A DNA stretch of 64,000 nucleotides from NCBI RefSeq assembly GCF_030013595.1, contig NZ_CP122768.1. One strand, given 5' to 3'. The translations under genes were made by a program, and so were the position numbers. This stretch comes from Escherichia coli (GTDB lineage Bacteria > Pseudomonadota > Gammaproteobacteria > Enterobacterales > Enterobacteriaceae). The notes under the pieces were generated by a model. It was given only the letters and a program-made list of their open reading frames with translations, had not been told where the DNA came from and did not search any database. Shown piece after piece: positions 11,954 to 64,000 of the stretch (the stretch's first letter is position 1; each line of letters begins with the position of its first letter).

Positions 11954-12099
11954 TTGCTGGTCTGGTTCGCGGCCTTTCCAGCAGGTTGACTTGTGTTGTC
12001 GGAGCAACGCAGGTGCTTCACAGCAAAGCAATACTCGCCAGTAACTCTCTTTTTGTCAAGCGAAAGAGAGTAATCATTGTTTATTTAGCGTATTATCGA

Positions 12100-12405
12100 C
12101 ACCGGCCCTTTCCGCCGTCTCGCAAACGGGCGCTGGCTTAAGGAAAGGATGTTCCATGGCCGTAAATGCAGGTGTTTCACAGCGCTTGCTATCGCGGCAA
12201 TATCGCCAGTGGTGCTGTCGTGATGCGGTCTTCGCATGGACCGCACAATGAAGATACGGTGCTTTTGTATCGTACTTATTGTTTCTGGTGCGCTGTTAAG
12301 CGAGGTAAATAATAACCGGAGTCTCTCCGGTAACAATTTACTGGTGGTTAACAAACTTCAGAGCAGCAAGTAAGCCCGAATGCCGCCCTTTGGGGCGGCA
12401 TATTT
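12100..12405 (+). ncRNA. ryfA: ryfA-type small RNA / timP mRNA, copy 1 (5' end not determined)
   Basis: Location between sseA and sseB where RyfA maps in E. coli; ends at hairpin gccgccc-tttg-gggcggc plus atatttt; contains small hydrophobic ORF. Confidence 0.45.
12236..12373 (+). CDS. timP: small hydrophobic protein, TimP-like type I toxin candidate (MDRTMKIRCFCIVLIVSGALLSEVNNNRSLSGNNLLVVNKLQSSK; may start at second Met)
   Basis: Own translation; ORF below the 60-aa track cutoff; hydrophobic TM-like core IRCFCIVLIVSGALL; position inside ryfA. Confidence 0.5.
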   Translation: MDRTMKIRCFCIVLIVSGALLSEVNNNRSLSGNNLLVVNKLQSSK

Positions 12406-12488
12406 TAGATTATCCGATGCTGTTTAAAGTCACGCAAAAAACCACCCCAGCGACGTTCATAGAATGGCGCAATATGTTCGGTAATAAA
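12395..12488 (-). pseudogene. duplicated 3'-terminal fragment of sseB (~30 codons) carried in repeat unit A
   Basis: Sequence ttagattatccgatgctgtttaaagtcacgcaaaaaaccaccccagcgacgttcatagaatggcgcaatatgttcggtaataaa is identical to the 3' end of sseB at 13083-13166. Confidence 0.8.
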
Positions 12489-12779
12489 ATAACCTAGCTT
12501 ATTAGTCCGAATTCAGACAAATATAAACAATTTTCGCTTAATATTAAAAATACTAACCAATAAAAGATATTACTTGAACATGTAATTTCACTTTCTTTAA
12601 ACAACAAAAAACCGCCAAAATCAGGCGGTTATTTGTTGCTGGTCTGGTTCGCGGCCTTTCCAGCAGATTGTATTACCGTAGTAATGCAAGCGCGTCTCAG
12701 CGGACACAATACTCGCCAGTAACTCTCTTTTTGTCAAGTAAAAGAGAGTTATTATTGTTCTGTTAGTGTATTATCCACT

Positions 12780-13085
12780 GCGGACCTTTCCGCCGTCTCG
12801 CAAGCGGGCGCTGGCTTAAGGAAAGGATGTTCCGCGACCGTTAGAGCAAGCGCGTCTCAGCGCTTGCTATCGCGGCAATATCGCCAGTGGTGCTGTCGTG
12901 ATGCGGTCTTCGCATGGACCGCACAATGAAGATACGGTGCTTTTGTATCGTACTTATTGTTTCTGGTGCGCTGTTAAGCGAGGTAAATAATAACCGGAGT
13001 CTCTCCGGTAACAATTTACTGGTGGTTAACAAACTTCAGAGCAGCAAGTAAGCCCGAATGCCGCCCTTTGGGGCGGCATATTTTA
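12780..13085 (+). ncRNA. ryfA: ryfA-type small RNA / timP mRNA, copy 2 (5' end not determined)
   Basis: Duplicate of copy 1; terminator hairpin 13060-13077 and T-tract overlap the sseB stop codon. Confidence 0.45.
12914..13051 (+). CDS. timP: small hydrophobic protein, TimP-like type I toxin candidate, copy 2 (identical 45-aa translation)
   Basis: Own translation of atggaccgcacaatgaagatacggtgcttttgtatcgta...agcagcaagtaa. Confidence 0.5.
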   Translation: MDRTMKIRCFCIVLIVSGALLSEVNNNRSLSGNNLLVVNKLQSSK

Positions 13086-32396: not shown

Positions 32397-32859
32397 GAAC
32401 TGCACCCCAAATGTTGGACATAATCTGACATCTGAAGGTGCAGTTTATGAAACATTCATTTGAAGTAAAACTTGCCGCTGTAAATCATTACCTGGCTGGT
32501 CATGCAGGCATCATTTCTACGGCAAAACTCTTTCAACTTTCTCACACCAGCCTCTCACACTGGATTAATCTTTTTCTTCTTCACGGTCCTCGTGCACTGG
32601 ATTGCAGACACAAGCGTAGCTATTCTCCTGAAGATAAACTTTGCGTGGTTCTTTATGCTCTCGGGCATTCTGAGTCTCTACCCCGGGTAGCTGCCCGGTT
32701 TAACATTCCCAGCCACAACACGGTTAAAAACTGGATAAAAGGCTACCGCAAATCTGGTAATGAGGCCTTTATCAGGCGCAGGAAGGAGAAAAGCATGACC
32801 CGTTCTGATGATACCCATGAAAACGAGGCAAACATGACGCCGGAAGAGATGAAGAATGA

Positions 32860-33827
<968 letters not shown>

Positions 33828-33844
33828 GAACGCCTTATCCGGCC
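33828..33844. repeat. right half of the split REP (gaacgccttatccggcc)
   Basis: See 32379-32396. Confidence 0.85.
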
Positions 33845-50779: not shown

Positions 50780-51016
50780 AATATATTAGTAAAGCTTATT
50801 ACTGAGTTTACGAATAATAAAAAAAGCAGTATATGAAATATCTCGATATTATTTTATTTATATTCATGCGTCGCATATGAAAGTTTATTCATAACAGTAA
50901 ATATCTCTCCATTCTTAGTGATCTACCTCACCTTTTAAACGCGCTTGCCGAATTTTGTTATTTACTCTGACGAAAAATTGTCACGATACACGAAAGTTTT
51001 TCACAGGCGGCGACTC
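50780..51016 (+). promoter_or_regulatory. AT-rich upstream region of the eut operon (expected main eut promoter)
   Basis: AT-rich 240 bp directly upstream of eutS; no specific boxes called. Confidence 0.35.
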
Positions 51017-51352
51017 ATGGATAAAGAACGCATCATTCAGGAATTTGTGCCCGGTAAACAGGTCACACTGGCGCATCTCATCGCGCATCCCGGCGAGGAA
51101 CTGGCGAAGAAAATCGGCGTTCCTGATGCGGGCGCAATCGGCATTATGACGCTAACTCCCGGCGAAACGGCGATGATCGCCGGTGATTTAGCACTAAAAG
51201 CCGCCGATGTGCATATCGGTTTTCTCGACCGTTTTAGCGGCGCGTTGGTGATTTATGGCTCGGTGGGTGCAGTAGAAGAAGCGTTATCACAAACCGTCAG
51301 CGGTTTAGGGCGTTTATTAAATTATACGCTTTGTGAAATGACCAAAAGTTAA
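51017..51352 (+). CDS. eutS: ethanolamine-utilization microcompartment shell protein EutS
   Basis: ORF track 50945..51352; start trimmed to [15 protein letters not shown] (111 aa). Confidence 0.9.
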
Positions 51353-51364
51353 TACGAGGCATTC

Positions 51365-51844
51365 ATGAAACGAATTGCGTTTGTGGGTACCGTCGGGGCA
51401 GGAAAAACAACGTTATTTAATGCGTTGCAGGGAGATTATACCCTCGCCAGAAAAACGCAGGCCGTAGAATTTAATGATAAGGGTGATATTGATACGCCGG
51501 GTGAATATTTTAGCCATCCCCGCTGGTATCACGCCTTAATTACCACGCTACAGGATGTGGACATGCTGATCTATGTCCACGGCGCGAATGACCCGGAAAG
51601 TCGGTTGCCTGCCGGGTTGCTGGATATTGGCGTCAGCAAACGGCAAATCGCCGTCATCAGTAAAACGGACATGCCAGATGCTGACGTCGCCGCAACGCGA
51701 AAGTTATTGCTTGAGACGGGCTTCGAAGAGCCGATTTTCGAGCTAAACAGCTACGACCCGCAAAGCGTGCAGCAACTGGTGGATTATCTGGCATCTCTCA
51801 CCAAACAGGAGGAAGCAGGTGAAAAAACTCATCACAGCGAATGA
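51365..51844 (+). CDS. eutP: EutP (P-loop GTPase-like, acetate kinase activity)
   Basis: ORF track 159 aa; Walker A GTVGAGKTT. Confidence 0.92.
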   Translation: MKRIAFVGTVGAGKTTLFNALQGDYTLARKTQAVEFNDKGDIDTPGEYFSHPRWYHALITTLQDVDMLIYVHGANDPESRLPAGLLDIGVSKRQIAVISKTDMPDADVAATRKLLLETGFEEPIFELNSYDPQSVQQLVDYLASLTKQEEAGEKTHHSE

Positions 51845-52520
51845 TATTCGTGAAGCACACGCGCGCGGCGAACAGGCAATGTCCGTGGTTCTGCGCGCCA
51901 GCATTATTACCCCGGAAGCCCGTGAAGTGGCAGATCTACTGGGTTTTACCATCACTGAATGTGATGAATCGACCCCGGTAACGGCGTCCGTTCCCGCCTG
52001 CGTGCCAGCCGATAAAACCGAAAGCCAGCGTATCCGCGAAACCATCATCGCCCAGCTACCGGAAGGCCAGTTTACCGAAAGCCTGGTCGCGCAGCTGATG
52101 GAAAAAGTGATGAAGGAAAAACAGTCACTGGAGCAGGGTGCAATGCAGCCGAGTTTCAAATCGGTTACCGGCAAAGGCGGCATCAAAGTGATTGATGGCA
52201 GCAGCGTCAAGTTTGGTCGTTTTGACGGCGCACAGCCACACTGCGTCGGATTAACGGATCTGGTCACCGGAGACGACGGCAGCAGCATGGCCGCTGGTTT
52301 TATGCAGTGGGAGAACGCCTTCTTCCCGTGGACCCTGAACTATGACGAAATCGACATGGTACTGGAAGGGGAACTGCACGTTCGCCACGAAGGCGAAACC
52401 ATGATCGCCAAAGCAGGCGACGTGATGTTTATCCCGAAAGGCTCCAGCATCGAATTTGGTACGACATCCAGCGTGAAATTCCTGTATGTCGCCTGGCCGG
52501 CTAACTGGCAATCCCTATGA
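51819..52520 (+). CDS. eutQ: EutQ (cupin-fold acetate kinase)
   Basis: ORF track 233 aa; overlaps eutP 3' end. Confidence 0.92.
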   Translation: MKKLITANDIREAHARGEQAMSVVLRASIITPEAREVADLLGFTITECDESTPVTASVPACVPADKTESQRIRETIIAQLPEGQFTESLVAQLMEKVMKEKQSLEQGAMQPSFKSVTGKGGIKVIDGSSVKFGRFDGAQPHCVGLTDLVTGDDGSSMAAGFMQWENAFFPWTLNYDEIDMVLEGELHVRHEGETMIAKAGDVMFIPKGSSIEFGTTSSVKFLYVAWPANWQSL

Positions 52521-53320
52521 AAGATTTCATCACCGAAGCATGGCTAAGAGCGAACCATACGCTCAGCGAAGGCGCAGAGATCCATCTCCCTGCGGACAGT
52601 CGCCTGACGCCCTCTGCCCGGGAGCTACTGGAAAGCCGCCATCTGCGCATCAAGTTTATTGACGAGCAGGGCCGCCTGTTTGTTGACGATGAACAGCAGC
52701 AGCCGCAGCCCGTTCACGGGCTGACCAGTAGCGATGAACATCCGCAGGCGTGCTGCGAACTGTGCCGCCAGCCGGTGGCAAAAAAGCCGGACACTCTGAC
52801 TCACCTGTCGGCGGAAAAAATGGTCGCCAAAAGCGATCCGCGCCTCGGTTTTCGCGCGGTTCTCGACAGCACCATTGCGCTGGCAGTGTGGCTGCAAATT
52901 GAACTGGCAGAACCGTGGCAGCCGTGGCTGGCGGACATCCGCTCGCGTCTTGGCAATATTATGCGTGCCGATGCGCTGGGGGAACCGCTGGCCTGCCAGG
53001 CGATTGTCGGGCTTTCTGACGAAGATCTGCATCGGCTTTCTCACCAGCCGCTGCGCTATCTTGGTCACGATCATCTGGTGCCGGAAGCCAGCCACGGGCG
53101 CGATGCGGCGTTACTCAATCTGCTACGCACCAAAGTGCGGGAAACCGAAACCGTAGCGGCGCAGGTATTTATCACCCGCAGCTTTGAAGTATTACGCCCG
53201 GACATCTTGCAGGCGCTGAACCGCCTTTCCAGCACGGTCTACGTGATGATGATCCTGAGCGTAGCGAAACAACCGCTAACGGTGAAGCAGATCCAACAAC
53301 GACTGGGGGAAACGCAATGA
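52517..53320 (+). CDS. eutT: EutT corrinoid adenosyltransferase
   Basis: ORF track 267 aa; 4-bp overlaps with eutQ and eutD. Confidence 0.92.
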
Positions 53321-54333
53321 TTATTGAACGTTGTCGTGAACTGGCGTTGCGAGCGCCCGCCAGAGTGGTTTTTCCGGATGCGTTAGATCAACGTGTGCTG
53401 AAAGCCGCGCAATATTTACATCAACAAGGTCTGGCAACGCCCATTCTGGTCGCCAGCCCGTTTGAACTTCGTCAGTTTGCGCTCAGTCATGGCGTGGCGA
53501 TGGACGGGGTTCAGGTTATTGATCCACAGAGCAATCTTGCTATGCGGGAAGCGTTTGCGCAGCGTTGGTTGGCCCGTGCGGGCGAAAAAACGCCGCCGGA
53601 TGCGCTGGAAAAACTCACCGATCCGCTGATGTTCGCTGCCGCAATGGTCAGCGCCGGGATAGCGGATGTCTGTATCGCGGGCAATCTCTCTTCCACGGCG
53701 AATGTGCTGCGTGCCGGATTACGCATTATTGGCTTACAGCCAGGCTGTAAAACGCTCTCCTCCATTTTCCTGATGCTGCCACAGTACAGTGGCCCCGCAT
53801 TGGGCTTTGCCGATTGCAGCGTAGTGCCACAGCCGACGGCGGCGCAACTGGCGGATATCGCGCTTGCCAGCGCCGAAACCTGGCGCGCCATCACCGGAGA
53901 AGAACCGCGCGTGGCGATGTTGTCGTTTTCCAGTAACGGCAGCGCCCGTCACCCCTGCGTTGCCAACGTCCAGCAGGCGACAGAAATCGTCCGTGAGCGC
54001 GCGCCGCAGTTGGTAGTCGATGGCGAGTTGCAGTTTGACGCCGCCTTCGTGCCGGAAGTGGCGGCGCAAAAAGCGCCTGCCAGCCCGCTACAAGGCAAGG
54101 CCAATGTGATGGTTTTTCCGTCGCTGGAAGCCGGAAATATTGGCTACAAAATCGCACAACGACTCGGCGGATATCGTGCCGTCGGGCCATTGATACAAGG
54201 GCTTGCCGCGCCGATGCACGATCTCTCTCGTGGTTGTAGCGTGCAGGAAATTATCGAGCTGGCGCTGGTGGCAGCTGTGCCGCGTCAGACAGAAGTGAAC
54301 CGCGAAAGCAGTTTACAAACACTGGTTGAATGA
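53317..54333 (+). CDS. eutD: EutD phosphotransacetylase
   Basis: ORF track 338 aa; PTA family. Confidence 0.92.
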
Positions 54334-54371
54334 ACGGTCCCGTTCTGGACCCTGATAAAGAGGAAAGCACA

Positions 54372-54665
54372 ATGGAAGCATTAGGAATGATCGAAACCCG
54401 GGGCCTGGTTGCACTGATTGAGGCTTCTGACGCGATGGTGAAAGCTGCGCGCGTCAAGCTGGTTGGTGTTAAGCAGATTGGCGGCGGCCTGTGTACTGCC
54501 ATGGTTCGTGGTGATGTTGCAGCCTGTAAAGCCGCGACCGACGCAGGTGCTGCAGCGGCACAGCGTATCGGCGAGCTGGTATCTGTACACGTTATCCCGC
54601 GTCCGCACGGCGACCTGGAAGAAGTCTTCCCGATCGGCCTGAAAGGCGATAGCAGCAACCTGTAA
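54372..54665 (+). CDS. eutM: microcompartment shell protein EutM (BMC-H)
   Basis: ORF track 54330..54665; start trimmed to [26 protein letters not shown] (97 aa). Confidence 0.92.
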
Positions 54666-54771
54666 TCACCCTGTGTGACGTCGATTCGGGCGTCACGCTC
54701 TCTCCTTTTTCAGTTTACCTTCCGCGGAGGGTAGGGGGAGCTTTTACCTGAAATACGCCACGGAGGCGGGT

Positions 54772-55059
54772 ATGAAACTGGCAGTCGTCACTGGACAAAT
54801 TGTTTGTACCGTACGCCATCACGGACTGGCGCATGACAAATTGCTGATGGTGGAAATGATTGATCCACAAGGTAATCCTGACGGGCAATGCGCCGTCGCC
54901 ATCGACAATATTGGCGCGGGAACCGGGGAGTGGGTGTTACTGGTGAGTGGCAGTTCCGCCCGCCAGGCGCATAAAAGCGAAACGTCACCGGTCGATCTGT
55001 GCGTGATTGGCATCGTCGATGAGGTGGTGTCTGGCGGTCAGGTAATTTTCCACAAATAA
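54772..55059 (+). CDS. eutN: microcompartment vertex protein EutN (BMC-P)
   Basis: ORF track 95 aa MKLAVVTGQIVCTVRHHGL... Confidence 0.92.
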   Translation: MKLAVVTGQIVCTVRHHGLAHDKLLMVEMIDPQGNPDGQCAVAIDNIGAGTGEWVLLVSGSSARQAHKSETSPVDLCVIGIVDEVVSGGQVIFHK

Positions 55060-55070
55060 GGCAGAACATC

Positions 55071-56474
55071 ATGAATCAACAGGATATTGAACAGGTGGTG
55101 AAAGCGGTACTGCTGAAAATGCAAAGCAGTGACACGCCGCCCGCCGCCCTTCATGAGATGGGTGTTTTCGCGTCCCTGGATGACGCCGTTGCGGCAGCCA
55201 AAGTCGCCCAGCAAGGGTTAAAAAGCGTGGCAATGCGCCAGTTAGCCATTGCTGCCATTCGTGAGGCAGGCGAAAAACACGCCAGAGATTTAGCGGAACT
55301 TGCCGTCAGTGAAACCGGCATGGGGCGCGTCGAAGATAAATTTGCCAAAAACGTCGCTCAGGCGCGCGGCACACCAGGCGTTGAGTGCCTCTCTCCGCAA
55401 GTGCTGACGGGCGACAACGGCCTGACTTTAATTGAAAACGCGCCCTGGGGCGTGGTGGCTTCGGTGACGCCTTCCACTAACCCGGCGGCAACCGTAATTA
55501 ACAACGCCATCAGCCTGATTGCCGCGGGCAACAGCGTCATTTTTGCCCCGCATCCGGCGGCGAAAAAAGTCTCCCAGCGGGCGATTACGCTGCTCAACCA
55601 GGCGATTGTTGCCGCAGGCGGGCCGGAAAACTTACTGGTTACTGTGGTCAATCCGGATATCGAAACCGCGCAACGTTTGTTCAAGTTTCCGGGTATCGGC
55701 CTTTTGGTGGTGACCGGCGGCGAAGCGGTAGTGGAAGCGGCGCGTAAACACACCAATAAACGTCTGATTGCCGCGGGCGCTGGCAACCCACCGGTAGTGG
55801 TGGATGAAACCGCCGACCTCGCCCGTGCCGCTCAGTCCATCGTCAAAGGCGCTTCTTTCGATAACAACATCATTTGTGCCGACGAAAAGGTACTGATTGT
55901 TGTTGATAGCGTAGCCGATGAACTGATGCGTCTGATGGAAGGCCAGCACGCGGTGAAACTGACCGCAGAGCAGGCGCAGCAGCTGGAACCGGTGTTGCTG
56001 AAAAATATCGACGAGCGCGGAAAAGGCACCGTCAGCCGTGACTGGGTTGGTCGCGATGCGGCGAAAATCGCGGCGGCAATCGGCCTTAAAGTTCCGGAAC
56101 AAACGCGACTGCTGTTTGTAGAAACCACCGCAGAACATCCGTTTGCCGTGACCGAACTGATGATGCCGGTGCTGCCCGTCGTGCGTGTCGCCAACGTGGC
56201 GGATGCCATTGCGCTGGCGGTGAAACTGGAAGGCGGTTGCCACCACACGGCGGCAATGCACTCGCGCAACATCGAGAACATGAACCAGATGGCGAACGCC
56301 ATTGATACCAGCATCTTCGTTAAGAACGGACCGTGCATTGCCGGGCTGGGGCTGGGCGGGGAAGGCTGGACCACCATGACCATCACCACGCCAACCGGTG
56401 AAGGGGTAACCAGCGCGCGTACGTTTGTCCGTCTGCGTCGCTGTGTATTAGTCGATGCGTTTCGCATTGTTTAA
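55071..56474 (+). CDS. eutE: EutE acetaldehyde dehydrogenase (acetylating)
   Basis: ORF track 467 aa; ALDH fold. Confidence 0.92.
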   Translation: MNQQDIEQVVKAVLLKMQSSDTPPAALHEMGVFASLDDAVAAAKVAQQGLKSVAMRQLAIAAIREAGEKHARDLAELAVSETGMGRVEDKFAKNVAQARGTPGVECLSPQVLTGDNGLTLIENAPWGVVASVTPSTNPAATVINNAISLIAAGNSVIFAPHPAAKKVSQRAITLLNQAIVAAGGPENLLVTVVNPDIETAQRLFKFPGIGLLVVTGGEAVVEAARKHTNKRLIAAGAGNPPVVVDETADLARAAQSIVKGASFDNNIICADEKVLIVVDSVADELMRLMEGQHAVKLTAEQAQQLEPVLLKNIDERGKGTVSRDWVGRDAAKIAAAIGLKVPEQTRLLFVETTAEHPFAVTELMMPVLPVVRVANVADAIALAVKLEGGCHHTAAMHSRNIENMNQMANAIDTSIFVKNGPCIAGLGLGGEGWTTMTITTPTGEGVTSARTFVRLRRCVLVDAFRIV

Positions 56475-56484
56475 GGAGTAACAG

Positions 56485-56910
56485 ATGGCGCACGACGAAC
56501 AATGGCTCACCCCGCGTCTGCAAACGGCGGCAACGCTGTGTAACCAGACGCCTGCCGCAACGGAATCTCCGCTGTGGCTGGGGGGGGATCTGGGCACCTG
56601 CGATGTGGTGTCGATGGTTGTCGACCGCGACGGTCAGCCGGTGGCGGTATGCCTCGACTGGGCCGATGTGGTCCGCGACGGCATCGTCTGGGATTTCTTC
56701 GGTGCGGTCACCATTGTTCGTCGCCATCTCGACACCCTCGAGCAGCAATTCGGTCGCCGTTTTAGCCATGCGGCGACCTCATTTCCTCCAGGTACGGACC
56801 CGCGTATTTCCATCAACGTGCTGGAATCTGCCGGGCTGGAAGTGAGCCATGTGCTGGATGAGCCAACCGCAGTCGCGGATCTGCTGCAACTGGACAACGC
56901 AGGCGTAGTG
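56485..56910 (+). pseudogene. eutJ: eutJ 5' portion (142 codons), interrupted by IS10
   Basis: Reading frame MAHDEQWLTPRL...LQLDNAGVV runs straight into the IS10 outside end at 56911. Confidence 0.9.
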
Positions 56911-58239
56911 CTGATGAATCCCCTAATGATTTTGGTAAAAATCATTAAGTTAAGGTGGATACACATCTTGTCATATGATCAAATGGTTTCGCGAAAAATC
57001 AATAATCAGACAACAAGATGTGCGAACTCGATATTTTACACGACTCTCTTTACCAATTCTGCCCCGAATTACACTTAAAACGACTCAACAGCTTAACGTT
57101 GGCTTGCCACGCATTACTTGACTGTAAAACTCTCACTCTTACCGAACTTGGCCGTAACCTGCCAACCAAAGCGAGAACAAAACATAACATCAAACGAATC
57201 GACCGATTGTTAGGTAATCGTCACCTCCACAAAGAGCGACTCGCTGTATACCGTTGGCATGCTAGCTTTATCTGTTCGGGCAATACGATGCCCATTGTAC
57301 TTGTTGACTGGTCTGATATTCGTGAGCAAAAACGACTTATGGTATTGCGAGCTTCAGTCGCACTACACGGTCGTTCTGTTACTCTTTATGAGAAAGCGTT
57401 CCCGCTTTCAGAGCAATGTTCAAAGAAAGCTCATGACCAATTTCTAGCCGACCTTGCGAGCATTCTACCGAGTAACACCACACCGCTCATTGTCAGTGAT
57501 GCTGGCTTTAAAGTGCCATGGTATAAATCCGTTGAGAAGCTGGGTTGGTACTGGTTAAGTCGAGTAAGAGGAAAAGTACAATATGCAGACCTAGGAGCGG
57601 AAAACTGGAAACCTATCAGCAACTTACATGATATGTCATCTAGTCACTCAAAGACTTTAGGCTATAAGAGGCTGACTAAAAGCAATCCAATCTCATGCCA
57701 AATTCTATTGTATAAATCTCGCTCTAAAGGCCGAAAAAATCAGCGCTCGACACGGACTCATTGTCACCACCCGTCACCTAAAATCTACTCAGCGTCGGCA
57801 AAGGAGCCATGGGTTCTAGCAACTAACTTACCTGTTGAAATTCGAACACCCAAACAACTTGTTAATATCTATTCGAAGCGAATGCAGATTGAAGAAACCT
57901 TCCGAGACTTGAAAAGTCCTGCCTACGGACTAGGCCTACGCCATAGCCGAACGAGCAGCTCAGAGCGTTTTGATATCATGCTGCTAATCGCCCTGATGCT
58001 TCAACTAACATGTTGGCTTGCGGGCGTTCATGCTCAGAAACAAGGTTGGGACAAGCACTTCCAGGCTAACACAGTCAGAAATCGAAACGTACTCTCAACA
58101 GTTCGCTTAGGCATGGAAGTTTTGCGGCATTCTGGCTACACAATAACAAGGGAAGACTTACTCGTGGCTGCAACCCTACTAGCTCAAAATTTATTCACAC
58201 ATGGTTACGCTTTGGGGAAATTATGAGGGGATCTCTCAG
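56911..58239 (+). mobile_element. IS10 (complete, 1329 bp) inserted in eutJ, flanked by 9-bp target duplication GGCGTAGTG
   Basis: Outside end CTGATGAATCCCCTAATGATTTTGGTAAAAATCATTAAG at 56911; inside end ...GGGGATCTCTCAG at 58239; direct repeat ggcgtagtg at 56902-56910 and 58240-58248. Confidence 0.95.
57018..58226 (+). CDS. IS10 transposase (402 aa)
   Basis: ORF track MCELDILHDSLYQFCPELHLKRLNSLTLACHALLDCK..., recognised as IS10/Tn10 transposase. Confidence 0.95.
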   Translation: MCELDILHDSLYQFCPELHLKRLNSLTLACHALLDCKTLTLTELGRNLPTKARTKHNIKRIDRLLGNRHLHKERLAVYRWHASFICSGNTMPIVLVDWSDIREQKRLMVLRASVALHGRSVTLYEKAFPLSEQCSKKAHDQFLADLASILPSNTTPLIVSDAGFKVPWYKSVEKLGWYWLSRVRGKVQYADLGAENWKPISNLHDMSSSHSKTLGYKRLTKSNPISCQILLYKSRSKGRKNQRSTRTHCHHPSPKIYSASAKEPWVLATNLPVEIRTPKQLVNIYSKRMQIEETFRDLKSPAYGLGLRHSRTSSSERFDIMLLIALMLQLTCWLAGVHAQKQGWDKHFQANTVRNRNVLSTVRLGMEVLRHSGYTITREDLLVAATLLAQNLFTHGYALGKL

Positions 58240-58659
58240 GGCGTAGTGGATATCGGCGGCGGCACTACCGGCATTGCCATCGTGAAAAAGGGCAAGGTGA
58301 CGTACTCGGCGGATGAAGCCACTGGCGGACATCACATCTCTCTGACTCTCGCCGGAAATCGCCGTATTTCGCTGGAAGAGGCGGAGCAGTACAAGCGCGG
58401 TCACGGTGAAGAGATTTGGCCTGCGGTGAAACCGGTGTACGAAAAAATGGCGGACATTGTCGCCCGGCATATTGAAGGGCAGGGCATTACTGATTTATGG
58501 CTGGCGGGCGGCTCCTGTATGCAACCGGGCGTGGCGGAACTGTTTTGCAAACAATTCCCGGCGTTACAGGTGCATCTACCGCAGCACAGTTTGTTTATGA
58601 CCCCGCTGGCGATCGCCAGTAGCGGGCGAGAGAAAGCGGAGGGGATCTATGCAAAATGA
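58240..58659 (+). pseudogene. eutJ: eutJ 3' portion, continues in frame after the IS10 and its target duplication
   Basis: GVVDIGGGTTGIAIV... to stop; 426 + 420 - 9 bp = 837 bp, the expected 278-aa EutJ length. Confidence 0.9.
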
Positions 58660-59836
58660 ATTGCAGACCGCGCTCTTTCAGGCGTTCGATACCCTGAATC
58701 TGCAACGGGTAAAAACATTTAGCGTTCCACCAGTGACGCTTTGCGGTCCGGGCGCGATGAGCAGTTGCGGGCAGCAAGCGCAAACGCGTGGGCTGAAACA
58801 TCTGTTCGTGATGGCAGACAGCTTTTTGCATCAGGCGGGGATGACCGCCGGGCTGACGCGTAGCCTGGCCGTTAAAGGTATCGCCATGACGCTCTGGCCA
58901 TGTCCGGTGGGCGAACCGTGCATCACCGACGTGTGTGCAGCCGTGGCGCAGTTGCGTGAATCGGGTTGCGATGGGGTGATCGCGTTTGGCGGCGGCTCGG
59001 TGCTGGATGCAGCAAAAGCCGTGGCGTTGCTGGTGACGAACCCGGATAGCACGCTGGCAGAGATGTCAGAAACCAGCGTTCTGCAACCGCGCCTGCCGTT
59101 GATTGCCATTCCAACTACCGCCGGAACCGGTTCTGAAACCACCAACGTAACGGTGATTATCGACGCGGTGAGCGGGCGCAAGCAGGTGTTAGCCCACGCC
59201 TCGCTGATGCCGGATGTGGCGATTCTCGACGCTACGCTGACCGAAGGCGTGCCGTCGCATGTCACGGCGATGACCGGTATCGACGCGTTAACCCATGCTA
59301 TTGAAGCGTACAGCGCGCTGAACGCTACACCGTTTACCGACAGCCTGGCGATTGGCGCAATCGCGATGATTGGTAAATCACTGCCGAAAGCGGTGGGCTA
59401 CGGTCATGACCTTGCCGCGCGCGAGAGCATGTTGCTGGCTTCATGCATGGCGGGAATGGCGTTTTCCAGTGCGGGGCTTGGGTTATGCCACGCGATGGCG
59501 CATCAGCCAGGGGCGGCGCTGCATATTCCGCACGGTCTGGCGAACGCTATGTTGCTGCCAACGGTGATGGAATTTAACCGGATGGTTTGTCGTGATCGGT
59601 TTAGCTTGGTTGGTCGGGCGCTGCGAACTAAAAAATCCGACGATCGTGACGCTATTAACGCGGTAAGTGAGCTGATTGCGGAAGTCGGGATTGGTAAACG
59701 ACTGGGCGATATTGGTGCGACATCTGCGCATTACGGCGCATGGGCGCAGGCCGCGCTGGAAGATATTTGTCTGCGCAGCAACCCGCGTACCGCCAGCCTG
59801 GAGCAGATTGTCGGCCTGTACGCAGCGGCGCAATAA
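58649..59836 (+). CDS. eutG: EutG iron-dependent alcohol dehydrogenase
   Basis: ORF track 395 aa; Fe-ADH family; intact but downstream of IS10 (probably polar). Confidence 0.9.
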   Translation: MQNELQTALFQAFDTLNLQRVKTFSVPPVTLCGPGAMSSCGQQAQTRGLKHLFVMADSFLHQAGMTAGLTRSLAVKGIAMTLWPCPVGEPCITDVCAAVAQLRESGCDGVIAFGGGSVLDAAKAVALLVTNPDSTLAEMSETSVLQPRLPLIAIPTTAGTGSETTNVTVIIDAVSGRKQVLAHASLMPDVAILDATLTEGVPSHVTAMTGIDALTHAIEAYSALNATPFTDSLAIGAIAMIGKSLPKAVGYGHDLAARESMLLASCMAGMAFSSAGLGLCHAMAHQPGAALHIPHGLANAMLLPTVMEFNRMVCRDRFSLVGRALRTKKSDDRDAINAVSELIAEVGIGKRLGDIGATSAHYGAWAQAALEDICLRSNPRTASLEQIVGLYAAAQ

Positions 59837-59843
59837 AAGTGTA

Positions 59844-59957
59844 CGGACAGTCCCCTCGCCCCTTTGGGGAGAGGGTTAGGGTGAGGGGAACAGAGTCGCG
59901 CCGGTGCAAACAATTACCCTCACCCCGGCCCCTCGGCTTCCAGAGTGAGGGAAAAAC
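59844..59957. repeat. pair of inverted Box C-like GC-rich repeats between eutG and eutH
   Basis: cccctcgcccctttggggagagggttagggtgaggggaa and inverted partner ttaccctcaccccggcccctcggcttccagagtgaggg; related to 45098-45162. Confidence 0.55.
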
Positions 59958-60005
59958 CCACTTTCAGCATTGGCAATAAATAACAACTAACAGGGAGTAA
60001 AGGCG

Positions 60006-61232
60006 ATGGGAATTAACGAAATCATCATGTACATCATGATGTTCTTTATGCTGATAGCTGCCGTAGACAGGATCCTGTCGCAGTTCGGCGGTTCTGCTCG
60101 TTTCCTCGGTAAGTTCGGTAAAAGTATCGAAGGATCCGGCGGGCAGTTTGAAGAAGGCTTTATGGCGATGGGCGCACTGGGCCTGGCGATGGTTGGTATG
60201 ACCGCGCTGGCACCTGTTCTGGCCCACGTACTCGGACCGGTGATTATCCCGGTTTACGAAATGCTCGGTGCAAACCCGTCAATGTTCGCCGGAACACTGC
60301 TGGCGTGCGATATGGGCGGGTTCTTCCTCGCCAAAGAGCTGGCGGGCGGCGACGTAGCAGCGTGGCTATACTCTGGGTTAATTCTCGGGTCGATGATGGG
60401 GCCAACGATTGTGTTTTCCATTCCGGTGGCGCTCGGCATTATCGAACCTTCTGACCGTCGTTATCTGGCGCTCGGCGTGCTGGCGGGCATTGTGACCATT
60501 CCGATTGGCTGTATTGCTGGTGGTCTGGTTGCTATGTACTCCGGTGTGCAGATCAACGGTCAGCCGGTGGAATTCACCTTTGCGCTGATCCTGATGAACA
60601 TGATCCCGGTACTTATCGTTGCGGTGCTGGTGGCGCTGGGGCTGAAATTCATCCCGGAAAAAATGATCAACGGCTTCCAGATCTTCGCCAAATTCCTCGT
60701 TGCATTGATCACCCTCGGTCTTGCTGCCGCGGTAGTGAAATTCCTCCTTGGCTGGGAACTGATCCCGGGCCTTGATCCTATCTTTATGGCCCCTGGCGAC
60801 AAACCCGGTGAAGTGATGCGCGCCATTGAAGTTATCGGTTCTATCTCCTGCGTTCTGTTAGGGGCGTATCCGATGGTGCTGCTGCTGACCCGCTGGTTTG
60901 AAAAACCGCTGATGAGCGTCGGTAAAGTGCTGAATATGAACAACATCGCGGCAGCCGGCATGGTGGCAACGCTTGCCAACAACATCCCGATGTTCGGCAT
61001 GATGAAGCAGATGGATACCCGCGGCAAAGTCATCAACTGCGCCTTCGCCGTTTCCGCTGCTTTCGCCCTGGGCGACCACTTAGGCTTCGCCGCTGCCAAC
61101 ATGAACGCCATGATTTTCCCGATGATTGTCGGCAAATTGATCGGCGGCGTAACGGCGATTGGCGTGGCGATGATGCTGGTGCCAAAAGAAGACGCGACCG
61201 CGGCTAAAACCGAAGCGGAGGCACAATCGTGA
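60006..61232 (+). CDS. eutH: EutH ethanolamine permease
   Basis: ORF track 408 aa; polytopic membrane protein. Confidence 0.92.
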   Translation: MGINEIIMYIMMFFMLIAAVDRILSQFGGSARFLGKFGKSIEGSGGQFEEGFMAMGALGLAMVGMTALAPVLAHVLGPVIIPVYEMLGANPSMFAGTLLACDMGGFFLAKELAGGDVAAWLYSGLILGSMMGPTIVFSIPVALGIIEPSDRRYLALGVLAGIVTIPIGCIAGGLVAMYSGVQINGQPVEFTFALILMNMIPVLIVAVLVALGLKFIPEKMINGFQIFAKFLVALITLGLAAAVVKFLLGWELIPGLDPIFMAPGDKPGEVMRAIEVIGSISCVLLGAYPMVLLLTRWFEKPLMSVGKVLNMNNIAAAGMVATLANNIPMFGMMKQMDTRGKVINCAFAVSAAFALGDHLGFAAANMNAMIFPMIVGKLIGGVTAIGVAMMLVPKEDATAAKTEAEAQS

Positions 61233-62632
61233 ACACTCGCCAGCTACTGAGCGTCGGTATCGATATCGGCACCACCACCACCCAGGTGATTTTCTCCCAC
61301 CTGGAGCTGGTTAACCGTGCGGCGGTGTCGCAGGTGCCGCGCTACGAATTCATCAAACGCGAAATTAGCTGGCAAAGCCCGGTGTTCTTTACCCCTGTCG
61401 ATAAACAGGGTGGTTTAAAAGAAGCGGAACTGAAAACCTTAATCCTCGAGCAATATCAGGCTGCGGGCATTGCGCCGGAAAGCGTTGATTCTGGTGCCAT
61501 CATTATCACCGGTGAAAGCGCAAAAACCCGCAACGCTCGCCCGGCGGTGATGGCGCTCTCCCGGTCGCTGGGCGATTTTGTCGTCGCCAGCGCCGGGCCG
61601 CATCTTGAATCCGTGATCGCCGGACACGGTGCCGGGGCGCAAACCCTTTCTGAACAACGGCTGTGTCGGGTCCTGAATATCGATATCGGCGGTGGCACCG
61701 CGAACTACGCCCTGTTCGATGCCGGAAAAATCAGCGGCACTGCCTGCCTCAACGTCAGCGGTCGCCTGCTGGAAACCGACAGCCAGGGGCGCGTGGTTTA
61801 CGCTCATAAACCGGGGCAGATGATTGTGGATGAGTGCTTCGGTGCCGGTACTGACGCCCGTTCGCTGACTGGCGGGCAGCTGGTGCAGGTTACCCGCCGG
61901 ATGGCAGAGCTGATTGTCGAAGTGATTGACGGAACGCTCTCGCCGCTCGCGCAGGCATTGATGCAAACCGATTTGCTGCCCGCAGGTGTTACGCCCGAAA
62001 TCATTACGCTTTCTGGCGGGGTAGGCGAATGTTATCGCCACCAGCCCACCGACCCGTTCTGTTTTGCCGATATCGGCCCGCTTCTGGCAACGGCGCTGCA
62101 TGACCATCCGCGTCTGCGTGAGATGAACGTGCAGTTTCCGGCGCAAACCGTGCGCGCCACGGTGATTGGCGCGGGTGCTCATACCCTTTCGCTCTCTGGC
62201 AGCACAATCTGGCTGGAGGGCGTACAACTGCCGCTGCGCAATTTGCCAGTGGCGATCCCGATTGATGAAACGGATCTGGTCAGTGCCTGGCAACAGGCGC
62301 TGATTCAACTGGATCTTTGCCCCAAAACTGACGCGTACGTGCTGGCGCTTCCCGCCTCGCTGCCTGTGCGTTACGCCGCGGTACTGACGGTCATCAACGC
62401 GCTGGTCGATTTCGTCGCGCGTTTTCCGAATCCGCATCCCCTGCTGGTGGTGGCCGGGCAGGACTTTGGTAAAGCTCTGGGCATGTTGTTGCGCCCACAG
62501 CTACAACAACTCCCGTTGGCAGTCATTGACGAAGTGATTGTCCGCGCGGGGGACTATATCGACATTGGTACGCCTCTTTTTGGCGGATCGGTTGTGCCGG
62601 TGACGGTGAAATCACTCGCATTTCCTTCCTGA
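61229..62632 (+). CDS. eutA: EutA ethanolamine ammonia-lyase reactivase
   Basis: ORF track 467 aa MNTRQLLSVGIDIGTTTTQV... Confidence 0.92.
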   Translation: MNTRQLLSVGIDIGTTTTQVIFSHLELVNRAAVSQVPRYEFIKREISWQSPVFFTPVDKQGGLKEAELKTLILEQYQAAGIAPESVDSGAIIITGESAKTRNARPAVMALSRSLGDFVVASAGPHLESVIAGHGAGAQTLSEQRLCRVLNIDIGGGTANYALFDAGKISGTACLNVSGRLLETDSQGRVVYAHKPGQMIVDECFGAGTDARSLTGGQLVQVTRRMAELIVEVIDGTLSPLAQALMQTDLLPAGVTPEIITLSGGVGECYRHQPTDPFCFADIGPLLATALHDHPRLREMNVQFPAQTVRATVIGAGAHTLSLSGSTIWLEGVQLPLRNLPVAIPIDETDLVSAWQQALIQLDLCPKTDAYVLALPASLPVRYAAVLTVINALVDFVARFPNPHPLLVVAGQDFGKALGMLLRPQLQQLPLAVIDEVIVRAGDYIDIGTPLFGGSVVPVTVKSLAFPS

Positions 62633-62643
62633 GGGAACGACTT

Positions 62644-63456
62644 ATGAAACTAAAGACCACATTGTTCGGCAATGTATATCAGTTTAAGGATGTAAAAGAG
62701 GTGCTGGCTAAAGCCAACGAACTGCGTTCGGGGGATGTGCTGGCGGGCGTTGCTGCGGCAAGTTCACAGGAGCGCGTGGCGGCAAAGCAGGTGTTGTCGG
62801 AAATGACCGTAGCGGACATCCGCAATAATCCGGTGATTGCCTATGAAGATGACTGCGTGACGCGGCTGATTCAGGACGACGTTAACGAAACGGCCTATAA
62901 CCAGATTAAAAACTGGAGCATCAGCGAACTGCGTGAGTATGTGCTGAGCGATGAAATCAGCGTGGACGACATTGCCTTTACCCGCAAAGGGCTGACCTCG
63001 GAAGTGGTGGCGGCGGTAGCGAAGATTTGCTCCAACGCGGACCTGATCTACAGCGCGAAGAAAATGCCGGTGATCAAAAAGGCCAATACCACCATCGGTA
63101 TTCCGGGCACCTTTAGCGCCCGTTTGCAGCCGAACGATACCCGTGACGACGTGCAAAGTATCGCCGCGCAAATCTACGAAGGGCTTTCCTTCGGGGTGGG
63201 CGATGCGGTGATTGGCGTTAACCCGGTGACTGACGACGTGGAAAACTTAAGCCGCGTGTTGGATACCATTTATGGCGTGATCGACAAATTCAACATCCCA
63301 ACTCAGGGCTGCGTACTGGCGCACGTCACCACCCAGATCGAAGCGATCCGTCGTGGCGCACCAGGCGGGCTGATTTTCCAGAGTATCTGTGGCAGCGAAA
63401 AAGGGCTGAAAGAGTTTGGCGTAGAGCTGGCGATGCTCGATGAAGCACGCGCAGTG
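62644..63456 (+). pseudogene. eutB: eutB 5' portion (271 codons of ~453) truncated by second IS10
   Basis: MKLKTTLFGNVYQFKDVKEVLAKANELRSGD... reads into IS10 inside end at 63457 (the ORF-track tail RDPLIISPKRNHV is IS10-encoded). Confidence 0.9.
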
Positions 63457-64000
63457 CTGAGAGATCCCCTCATAATTTCCCCAAAGCGTAACCATGTGTG
63501 AATAAATTTTGAGCTAGTAGGGTTGCAGCCACGAGTAAGTCTTCCCTTGTTATTGTGTAGCCAGAATGCCGCAAAACTTCCATGCCTAAGCGAACTGTTG
63601 AGAGTACGTTTCGATTTCTGACTGTGTTAGCCTGGAAGTGCTTGTCCCAACCTTGTTTCTGAGCATGAACGCCCGCAAGCCAACATGTTAGTTGAAGCAT
63701 CAGGGCGATTAGCAGCATGATATCAAAACGCTCTGAGCTGCTCGTTCGGCTATGGCGTAGGCCTAGTCCGTAGGCAGGACTTTTCAAGTCTCGGAAGGTT
63801 TCTTCAATCTGCATTCGCTTCGAATAGATATTAACAAGTTGTTTGGGTGTTCGAATTTCAACAGGTAAGTTAGTTGCTAGAACCCATGGCTCCTTTGCCG
63901 ACGCTGAGTAGATTTTAGGTGACGGGTGGTGACAATGAGTCCGTGTCGAGCGCTGATTTTTTCGGCCTTTAGAGCGAGATTTATACAATAGAATTTGGCA
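63457..64000 (-). mobile_element. second IS10 copy, inverted relative to the first, partial (runs off window end)
   Basis: Inside end CTGAGAGATCCCCTCATAATTTCCCCAAAGCGTAACCATGTGTGAATAAATTTTGAGC at 63457; same sequence as reverse complement of 58180-58239. Confidence 0.93.
63470..64000 (-). CDS. IS10 transposase, C-terminal part (truncated by window end)
   Basis: ORF track 63470..63988 translation identical to the C-terminal 172 aa of the transposase at 57018-58226. Confidence 0.93.
   Translation of the reverse strand, partial: CQILLYKSRSKGRKNQRSTRTHCHHPSPKIYSASAKEPWVLATNLPVEIRTPKQLVNIYSKRMQIEETFRDLKSPAYGLGLRHSRTSSSERFDIMLLIALMLQLTCWLAGVHAQKQGWDKHFQANTVRNRNVLSTVRLGMEVLRHSGYTITREDLLVAATLLAQNLFTHGYALGKL

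Follow-up and report, generated by a model that had tools for sequence, protein, structure and literature searches.

Two separate IS10 insertions interrupt eutB and eutJ in the chromosomal eut operon of an Escherichia coli clone

The eut operon of E. coli and Salmonella consists of 17 genes (eutSPQTDMNEJGHABCLKR) with maeB, talA, and tktB as neighbours, and its P1/P2 organisation and EutR feedback loop have been described (PMC5821096). In E. coli K-12 MG1655 a 6,790-bp prophage, CPZ-55 (intZ, yffL to yffS), is annotated exactly in the spacer between eutA and eutB, a position also stated in the literature (PMC11148124). The other described system that bears on the present locus is IS10-Right of Tn10, which RefSeq labels "IS4-like element ISVsa5 family". 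IS10-Right is 1329 bp long (PMC11148124), has a canonical outside end (CTGATGAATCCCCTAATGATTTTGGTAAAA) and inside end (CTGAGAGATCCCCTCATAATTTCCCC), encodes a 402-aa transposase from base 108 as well as RNA-OUT, and is accompanied by a 9-bp duplication.

How does the locus in our window, the 64,000-nucleotide stretch of E. coli DNA analysed here (RefSeq assembly GCF_030013595.1, contig NZ_CP122768.1), compare with these systems? The ORFs, the RefSeq annotation of L001, and NCBIfam identify it as the chromosomal eut operon, in the canonical order (eutS-P-Q-T-D-M-N-E-J-G-H-A-B...) and adjoining maeB, and a profile search of the window returned NCBIfam equivalog matches for EutE, EutJ, EutG, EutH, EutA, and EutB. 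From eutS to eutA, the gene order, orientation, and ORF lengths are those of the 17-gene operon, and the neighbours maeB, talA, and tktB are the same. Identity to the intact operons of HCP5S3_I2 and GCA_020322815.1 is 99.9–100%; HCP5S3_I2, the nearest of 5,426 complete RefSeq E. coli genomes (99.9% identity), carries no insertion sequence in eut. The window differs in that eutJ and eutB are each broken by IS10, and eutC, eutL, eutK, and eutR lie beyond its end. With the exception of eutJ and eutB, every eut ORF in the window is intact and of standard length. The features are as follows, with the start of eutS taken from the RefSeq annotation of L001, which is 99.9% identical to the window.

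51017–51352, + strand: eutS (shell protein), intact ORF, 111 aa
51365–51844, + strand: eutP, intact, 159 aa
51819–52520, + strand: eutQ, intact, 233 aa
52517–53320, + strand: eutT, intact, 267 aa
53317–54333, + strand: eutD (pta-like), intact, 338 aa
54372–54665, + strand: eutM, intact, 97 aa
54772–55059, + strand: eutN, intact, 95 aa
55071–56474, + strand: eutE (aldehyde dehydrogenase), intact, 467 aa; NCBIfam NF011927, 736 bits
56485–56910, + strand: eutJ 5' fragment, codons 1–142 of 278; EutJ profile NF011660, positions 3–146 of 277
56902–56910, no strand: left target-site duplication of the first IS10, 9 bp, GGCGTAGTG
56911–58239, + strand: first IS10 (IS10 #1), complete, 1329 bp, IS10-Right type; outside end left, inside end right
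56956–57025, - strand: RNA-OUT antisense RNA (pOUT transcript) of IS10 #1; Rfam RF00240, 98.8 bits, gathering score 41
57018–58226, + strand: transposase gene of IS10 #1, intact, 402 aa; ATG at IS position 108
58240–58248, no strand: right target-site duplication of IS10 #1, 9 bp, GGCGTAGTG
58240–58659, + strand: eutJ 3' fragment, codons 140–278 and stop; NF011660, positions 145–276 of 277
58649–59836, + strand: eutG, intact ORF 3' of the eutJ insertion, 395 aa; NF011998, 882 bits
60006–61232, + strand: eutH, intact ORF, 408 aa; NF011665, 873 bits
61229–62632, + strand: eutA, intact ORF, 467 aa, with no prophage before eutB; NF007991, 1063 bits
62644–63456, + strand: eutB 5' fragment, codons 1–271 of 453
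63448–63456, no strand: left target-site duplication of the second IS10, 9 bp, CGCGCAGTG; right copy seen in contig L030
63457–64000, - strand: second IS10 (IS10 #2), inside end (CTGAGAGATCCCCTCATAATTTCCCC) first, transposase on the - strand, running to the window end

The end of eutA (62632) and the start of eutB (62644) are separated by an 11-nt spacer, and K-12 MG1655 has the same operon with the same spacer region. The preliminary description noted that eutA abuts eutB where K-12 has CPZ-55, and both the ORFs and the MG1655 annotation agree. Its phrase "ancestral, non-K-12 layout" is correct but describes something unremarkable: eutA directly adjoins eutB in 4,964 of the 5,426 complete E. 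coli genomes (91.5%), and since this is the usual layout the absence of CPZ-55 is not notable. The query for the eutA/eutB junction matched a median of one place per genome; a second eut locus is not an E. coli feature.

The element in eutJ differs from IS10-Right in nothing. Its left end, read directly, is the outside end CTGATGAATCCCCTAATGATTTT, and its last bases are GGGGATCTCTCAG; both canonical ends of IS10-Right are present, and its terminal inverted repeats match at 17 of 23 positions. The transposase belongs to the IS4 family (NF033591, 404 bits against a cutoff of 152), and the whole element is identical over 1329 nt to the one annotated ISVsa5/IS4-like in E. coli KFu021. Unlike the arms of Tn10, the IS10 elements in eut are solitary and lie outside any tet-bearing Tn10. 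RNA-OUT of IS10 #1 is transcribed in the direction of the outside end and lies antisense to eut. That pOUT is active is presumed from the Rfam RNA-OUT match and the published IS10 literature; a sigma-70 consensus scan of 56800–58700 found no promoter-like site and is uninformative for pIN and pOUT. The duplicated target GGCGTAGTG is single-copy in contigs L004, L028, and L001, and removing IS10 #1 together with one copy of the duplication in silico yields an uninterrupted eutJ identical to that of L004 and L028. As it stands, the 5' ORF of eutJ continues into the element and stops at 57078. The resulting fusion product of 197 aa returned no record in an exact-protein look-up; in the same kind of look-up a 152-aa IS-fusion fragment was found only in L006.

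The 544 nt of IS10 #2 that lie in the window are 100% complementary to 57696–58239, and the element, if full length, would finish near 64785. The 5' ORF of eutB enters it and ends at a stop at 63501; its product has 285 aa, the last 14 of which form the tail LRDPLIISPKRNHV. The fragment matches positions 2–268 of the 461 in profile NF011649 with 350 bits, under the cutoff of 554. An intact EutBC ethanolamine ammonia-lyase was not found in the window: EutB stops at residue 271 of 453, and eutC lies outside. Full-length EutB corresponds to chain A of PDB 3ABO across residues 1–453. The lost residues 272–453 are the 182 C-terminal residues, or 40% of the catalytic large subunit, and among them is Glu287, which has been described as a key residue conserved in ethanolamine ammonia-lyase (PMC4413051).

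The far side of the eutB insertion is seen in clonal relatives. The sister draft GCA_021649405.1 is 100% identical to the window in eut, and its contig L030 opens with 182 nt of the IS10 outside end, followed by CGCGCAGTG and eutB from nt 814, and then by full-length ORFs of eutC, eutL, eutK, and eutR. As seen in L030, the IS10 copy in eutB differs from IS10-Right at IS position 107 (G to A). The far-junction product was found in 12 contigs by a look-up that used the EutB I385 allele from L028 (GCA_020322815.1); the HCP5S3_I2 allele is T385. From these relatives we infer that the 3' part of eutB and eutCLKR are present in the source genome, the window itself showing the 5' junction alone. The preliminary description had eutJ and eutB both split by IS10. 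For eutJ this is confirmed by the complete element, its 9-bp duplications, and the match of both fragments to the EutJ profile; for eutB the window bears out the 5' junction, whereas the far junction and the 3' part come from sister assemblies only. Likewise, the eutJ insertion is upstream of eutG, eutH, and eutA as described, and a polar effect on them is predicted. Given the loss of 40% of EutB, we agree that the operon is almost certainly non-functional and consider the predicted Eut-negative phenotype well founded.

The same sister draft shows which insertion came first. Its contig L004 matches the window at 100% identity across 10.9 kb and has the same eutB-IS10 junction, but its eutJ is uninterrupted. 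Because one sister assembly thus has only the eutB insertion, the eutB hit is the older, and the eutJ insertion came later in a sub-clone. Contigs L005 (GCA_036246605.1) and L006 (GCA_008326365.1), 5.4–5.5 kb in length, are bounded by both IS10 junctions, and L028, whose operon is intact, carries the same alleles and is identical to the window across the 5217 nt that separate the two elements. Both insertions are absent from the 5,426 complete E. coli genomes, several public drafts have both, and the alleles are common to a small clone.

We propose, with high confidence, that two separate IS10 insertions, in eutB and then in eutJ, inactivate the chromosomal eut operon. In a lineage with active IS10, two cut-and-paste transpositions entered eut separately, each with its own 9-bp duplication. 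The first, into eutB codons 269–271, leaves a 271-residue EutB stub; since the stub lacks the C-terminal 182 residues, Glu287 included, ethanolamine ammonia-lyase is predicted to be dead. The second, into eutJ codons 140–142 in a sub-clone, places an extra block upstream of eutG, eutH, and eutA, and it looks like decay under relaxed selection once the pathway was lost. The promoter-proximal genes, from eutS to eutE, are intact, and P1 can presumably still induce them, while eutR, as the last gene, would be cut off from the positive feedback that P1 drives. Because the outside end of IS10 #2 adjoins the eutB 3' fragment, its pOUT points into eutB'-eutC-L-K-R and may support low constitutive transcription there.

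Could the loss of eutB instead be adaptive, with EutR sensing kept and catabolism abolished, so that the same eutB site is hit recurrently? In support of this idea, eutR is intact downstream, and EutR controls virulence genes independently of catabolism (PMC5821096). Moreover, L012 (run ERR11841091) carries an IS10-Left-type element at the same 9-bp eutB site in a different lineage, with 71 mismatches to L030 in 6000 nt and a different outside-end sequence. Two IS10 variants in two lineages therefore occupy the same CGCGCAGTG site, and in both the outside end is turned toward eutC-L-K-R. Other lineages have members of the same element family in the same operon: KFu021 carries IS10 in eutQ and NIID080884 an IS10-Left-type element in eutE, with 9-bp duplications AGCCGAGCT and TGCAGAACA, respectively, although the genes, sites, and lineages are different and each has one insertion as against two in the window. 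We give only a slim chance to the proposal that CGCGCAGTG at eutB codons 269–271 is a favoured recurrent target, at which insertion in this orientation abolishes ethanolamine catabolism and leaves, through pOUT-driven eutC-L-K-R, a locus that senses constitutively by way of EutR but has no metabolosome, and we regard the adaptive explanation as slightly less probable again. The recurrence can be explained by the target preference of IS10. The IS10 target consensus in the Kleckner-laboratory literature is symmetric, NGCTNAGCN, and both sites in the window (GCGNAGT) match four of its six specified positions. The L012 site is also GCGNAGT, a heptamer that occurs only six times in 11.2 kb. Two sites in eut, at 52561 and 62943, are perfect GCTNAGC matches, and neither is occupied. 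Furthermore, IS10 occurs in the searched part of eut in only 2 of the 5,426 complete genomes, which is no enrichment over a chance expectation of about 6, a rough estimate from ~4,400 chromosomal IS10 matching places with partial copies included. The 4,964 genomes with adjoining eutA and eutB keep that junction intact, and neither of the two eutB::IS10 junctions has a match in JGI metagenome contigs. A literature search on eutB and IS10 returned nothing relevant beyond a paper on K-12 cloning strains.

Four ENA metagenome scaffolds (L009, L013, L014, and L015) were considered as further hits at the eutB site and rejected, as none contains IS10 sequence. In each, the 3' part of eutB begins at exactly nt 805 after 100 Ns. 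The scaffolds break there because a common synonymous SNP at nt 804 (GCA/GCG) breaks the de Bruijn graphs of strain mixtures, and the eutB 3' look-up itself selects breaks between nt 791 and 811.

The two IS10 copies also invite comparison with Tn10. They are inverted, with their inside ends facing a 5217-bp cargo (eutJ'-G-H-A-eutB') and their outside ends pointing outward, the left at 56911 and the right as seen in L030. This geometry is exactly that of Tn10, and the arms are 100% identical; the 7.9-kb IS10/eutJ'-eutG-eutH-eutA-eutB'/IS10 segment could accordingly be a composite transposon, either one that has already moved as a whole or one that is ready to move and carry eut genes along. 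We consider such a unit very improbable, and as the origin of the structure it is refuted. Tn10 would call for a single shared 9-bp duplication and foreign cargo, and neither was found. Instead, each IS10 has a separate duplication (the pair of IS10 #2 by way of the sister assembly) and the cargo continues the flanking eut sequence collinearly and in frame, which argues for two separate insertions and no transposed unit. Similarly, L004 is a one-IS intermediate, so that the structure arose in place in two steps; the segment is on no genuine plasmid of the collection searched; and the inverted orientation arises by chance in one of four cases for two independent insertions. Full-length matches to IS10-eut-IS10 in a plasmid collection are all mislabelled chromosomes of 1.4–4.9 Mb with at most 97.5% identity. 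Finally, the notion that an assembler misplaced IS10 repeats into a truly intact operon, for which one may cite the multicopy state of IS10 in relatives (38 matching places for an IS10-containing query in HCP5S3_I2) and the lack of the junctions in any complete RefSeq genome, is barely credible against identical junctions in independent drafts (L004, L005, L006, L030, and 11 more contigs), contig breaks exactly where the repeat would cause them, correct 9-bp duplications at both insertions, and the sub-consensus target heptamer GCGNAGT common to both sites.

The disruption of eut by two separate IS10 insertions is an ordinary, well-understood pseudogenisation by a known insertion sequence and reveals no new element, mechanism, or gene arrangement. 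It is nevertheless a tidy example of stepwise decay, in which the catalytic gene was lost first and the second insertion came later, presumably under relaxed selection. Ethanolamine is a nutrient of the gut and urinary tract that confers a competitive advantage on E. coli, and the prediction that this clone is unable to use it is a useful strain-level annotation.

How did the eut operon of this genome come to be interrupted? The operon lies 3' of maeB on the + strand, within 50945-64000. Its genes were named from the RefSeq annotation of the 99.9% identical, intact locus of HCP5S3_I2, the closest complete genome, and from NCBIfam equivalog matches. Every eut gene in the window is an ORF of standard length with the exception of eutJ and eutB. 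The relevant features are as follows.

51017-51352, + strand: eutS ORF
Between eutS and eutE, + strand: ORFs of eutP, eutQ, eutT, eutD, eutM and eutN, in that order
55071-56474, + strand: eutE ORF
3' of eutE, + strand: ORFs of eutJ, eutG, eutH and eutA, then the start of eutB
56911-58239 (1329 bp), transposase on the + strand: IS10 #1, the copy in eutJ, its ends read directly
57018-58226: intact 402-aa IS4-family transposase of IS10 #1 (NF033591, 404 bits)
56956-57025, - strand: RNA-OUT of IS10 #1 (Rfam RF00240, 98.8 bits)

eutE is intact in the window, whereas the HCP5S3_I2 annotation places internal stops in eutE (L001 5572-6975) as well as in hyfI and nudK (L016 15876-16634 and 43794-44369); these stops may be assembly sequencing errors or true pseudogenes. 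The eutG-eutH spacer (window 59837-60005) ranges from 116 nt in strains KFu021 and NIID080884 through 169 nt in the window and HCP5S3_I2 to 216 nt in K-12, a variation that probably reflects differing REP-element content.

The preliminary description held that IS10 splits both eutJ and eutB, and both splits are borne out. The eutJ frame enters CTGATGAATCCCCTAATGATTTTGGTAAAA at 56911, IS10 #1 terminates with GGGGATCTCTCAG at 58239, and the 9-bp GGCGTAGTG directly flanks the complete element on both sides (56902-56910 and 58240-58248). The 277-position EutJ profile is matched in two pieces, 3-146 on the 5' side and 145-276 on the 3' side. This is a simple IS10-Right-type insertion just after codon 142 of 278. 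IS10 #1 is identical at every base to the KFu021 element, labeled ISVsa5/IS4-like in RefSeq, and its RNA-OUT is directed leftward, antisense to eutJ' and eutE.

In eutB, the frame enters CTGAGAGATCCCCTCATAATTTCCCC, a reversed IS10 inside end, at 63457; from there to the window edge, 544 nt show 100% complementarity with 57696-58239 of IS10 #1. EutB is interrupted past residue 271 of 453, leaving a stub that matches profile positions 2-268 of 461 and scores below the family cutoff. The window ends within this second copy, IS10 #2, and the far junction was taken from relatives' contigs: in L030, from the sister draft assembly GCA_021649405.1, 182 nt of IS10 outside end are followed by CGCGCAGTG and eutB from nt 814, and then by full-length ORFs for eutC (295 aa), eutL (219 aa), eutK (166 aa) and eutR (350 aa). 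Directly before the transposase ATG in L030 (~76; IS10 position 107), the eutB copy differs from IS10 #1 by a G to A change also found in IS10-Left-type copies; the change may be genuine, or it may come from short reads of several IS copies being merged into one consensus.

Comparison with other E. coli eut loci, proposed in the preliminary description, found neither insertion in 5,426 complete RefSeq E. coli genomes and both among draft relatives. Clone members were retrieved by exact-protein look-ups in public assemblies, where the far-junction product is present on 12 contigs. L004, a second contig of the sister assembly, is 100% identical to the window across 10.9 kb and stops 96 nt inside IS10 at the identical eutB junction; its eutJ is uninterrupted, with a single copy of GGCGTAGTG. 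Contigs of 5.4-5.5 kb from two further assemblies (GCA_036246605.1 and GCA_008326365.1) have an IS10 junction at each end, and GCA_020322815.1 carries the clone's alleles in a wholly intact operon. From these structures we infer that IS10 entered eutB cleanly, making a 9-bp duplication of its own, and that this event came earlier, eutJ::IS10 following in a sub-clone containing the window's genome.

The two copies are inverted with outside ends outward, the Tn10 arrangement, around a 5217-bp eutJ'-G-H-A-eutB' segment. A single transposed unit is rejected on three grounds: the two elements are flanked by separate duplications, the genes between them remain collinear with the rest of eut, and L004 represents an intermediate with only one of the insertions. 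A plasmid search placed the segment on no genuine plasmid. In principle the arrangement is capable of transposition, or of inversion via IS-IS recombination; neither is evidenced.

Is the eutB site preferred? In L012, a contig from Logan run ERR11841091, an IS10-Left-type outside end (1-38; TTTTTATCAA, not TTTTGGTAAA) is joined to CGCGCAGTG and eutB nt 814. Over 6000 downstream positions it shows 71 differences from L030 and belongs to a separate E. coli lineage, and by these sequences its insertion is an independent event at the identical site. GCGNAGT is common to both window target sites and the L012 site; an 11.2-kb stretch of eut holds just six such heptamers in all, and two perfect GCTNAGC sites are unoccupied. 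Further insertions lie in eutQ (KFu021) and eutE (NIID080884). As a common element, IS10 has near-full copies in 1,174 of the 5,426 complete genomes, with a maximum of 45 matching places per genome; these two eut insertions are no excess. Both eutB::IS10 junctions were absent from JGI metagenome scans. Four metagenome scaffolds with an apparent break at the same eutB nucleotide were set aside, a common SNP at nt 804 and look-up selection explaining the pattern. Separately, in another E. coli (L011, Logan SRR36207312, ~9129-10001), a phage-type integrase and phage genes adjoin eutB near nt 809, and a prophage-like element appears to lie inside eutB, at most 4 nt from the IS10 target; this contig surfaced solely since the look-up favours breaks just 5' of GTG at codon 271.

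As originally described, eutA (end 62632) adjoins eutB (start 62644), whereas in K-12 MG1655 the cryptic prophage CPZ-55 (2558691-2565480) fills exactly this spacer (PMC11148124). The layout was correctly called non-K-12 but is not distinctive: since 4,964 of 5,426 genomes match an 801-nt query over the junction without a gap, the prophage-free state is evidently the species norm and K-12 the unusual one.

Elsewhere in the window, an IS1397 (~32400-33843; junction 33828-33843) has yphA and the hca operon to its left in ascending K-12 order and ypfN and dapE to its right in descending order; HCP5S3_I2 collinearity begins only at 33828. Because these opposite orders flank the element and other strains have yphA-IS1397-yphB or ypfH-IS1397-ypfN (SK1402; 6 of 5,426 genomes), the arrangement suggests an ~80-kb inversion via recombination of two inverted IS1397 copies, its second junction beyond the window. 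Between sseA and sseB, the ryfA (timP toxin) sRNA locus is tandemly duplicated (12029-13084); comparison strain L017 has one timP annotated there.

12102-12406: full Rfam ryfA match
12438-12648: IS128 sRNA match
12780-13084: full Rfam ryfA match

What do the insertions mean for ethanolamine use? The large subunit of ethanolamine ammonia-lyase, EutB, aligns at full length with residues 1-453 of PDB 3ABO chain A, and the stub lacks 272-453, among them Glu287, a key conserved residue of the enzyme (PMC4413051). With these residues gone the lyase would have no activity, and a Eut-negative strain is expected, which supports, as a prediction, the earlier view that the operon is non-functional. E. 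coli normally has a single eut locus (the junction query has a median of one place per complete genome); the window's genome is known here from the window alone. IS10 #2 pOUT, by symmetry with IS10 #1, would be aimed into eutB'-eutC-L-K-R; in IS10, pOUT is a well-established source of outward activation. A sigma-70 consensus scan over 56800-58700 picked out no promoter and is no guide to pOUT activity. P1, controlled by EutR, transcribes all eut genes; the last of them, eutR, is also served by P2, a weak constitutive promoter (PMC5821096). The insertions would therefore also interrupt the P1-to-eutR feedback loop. The eut case is an ordinary two-step, clonally inherited loss of a catabolic operon to a well-known IS, with nothing new in kind.
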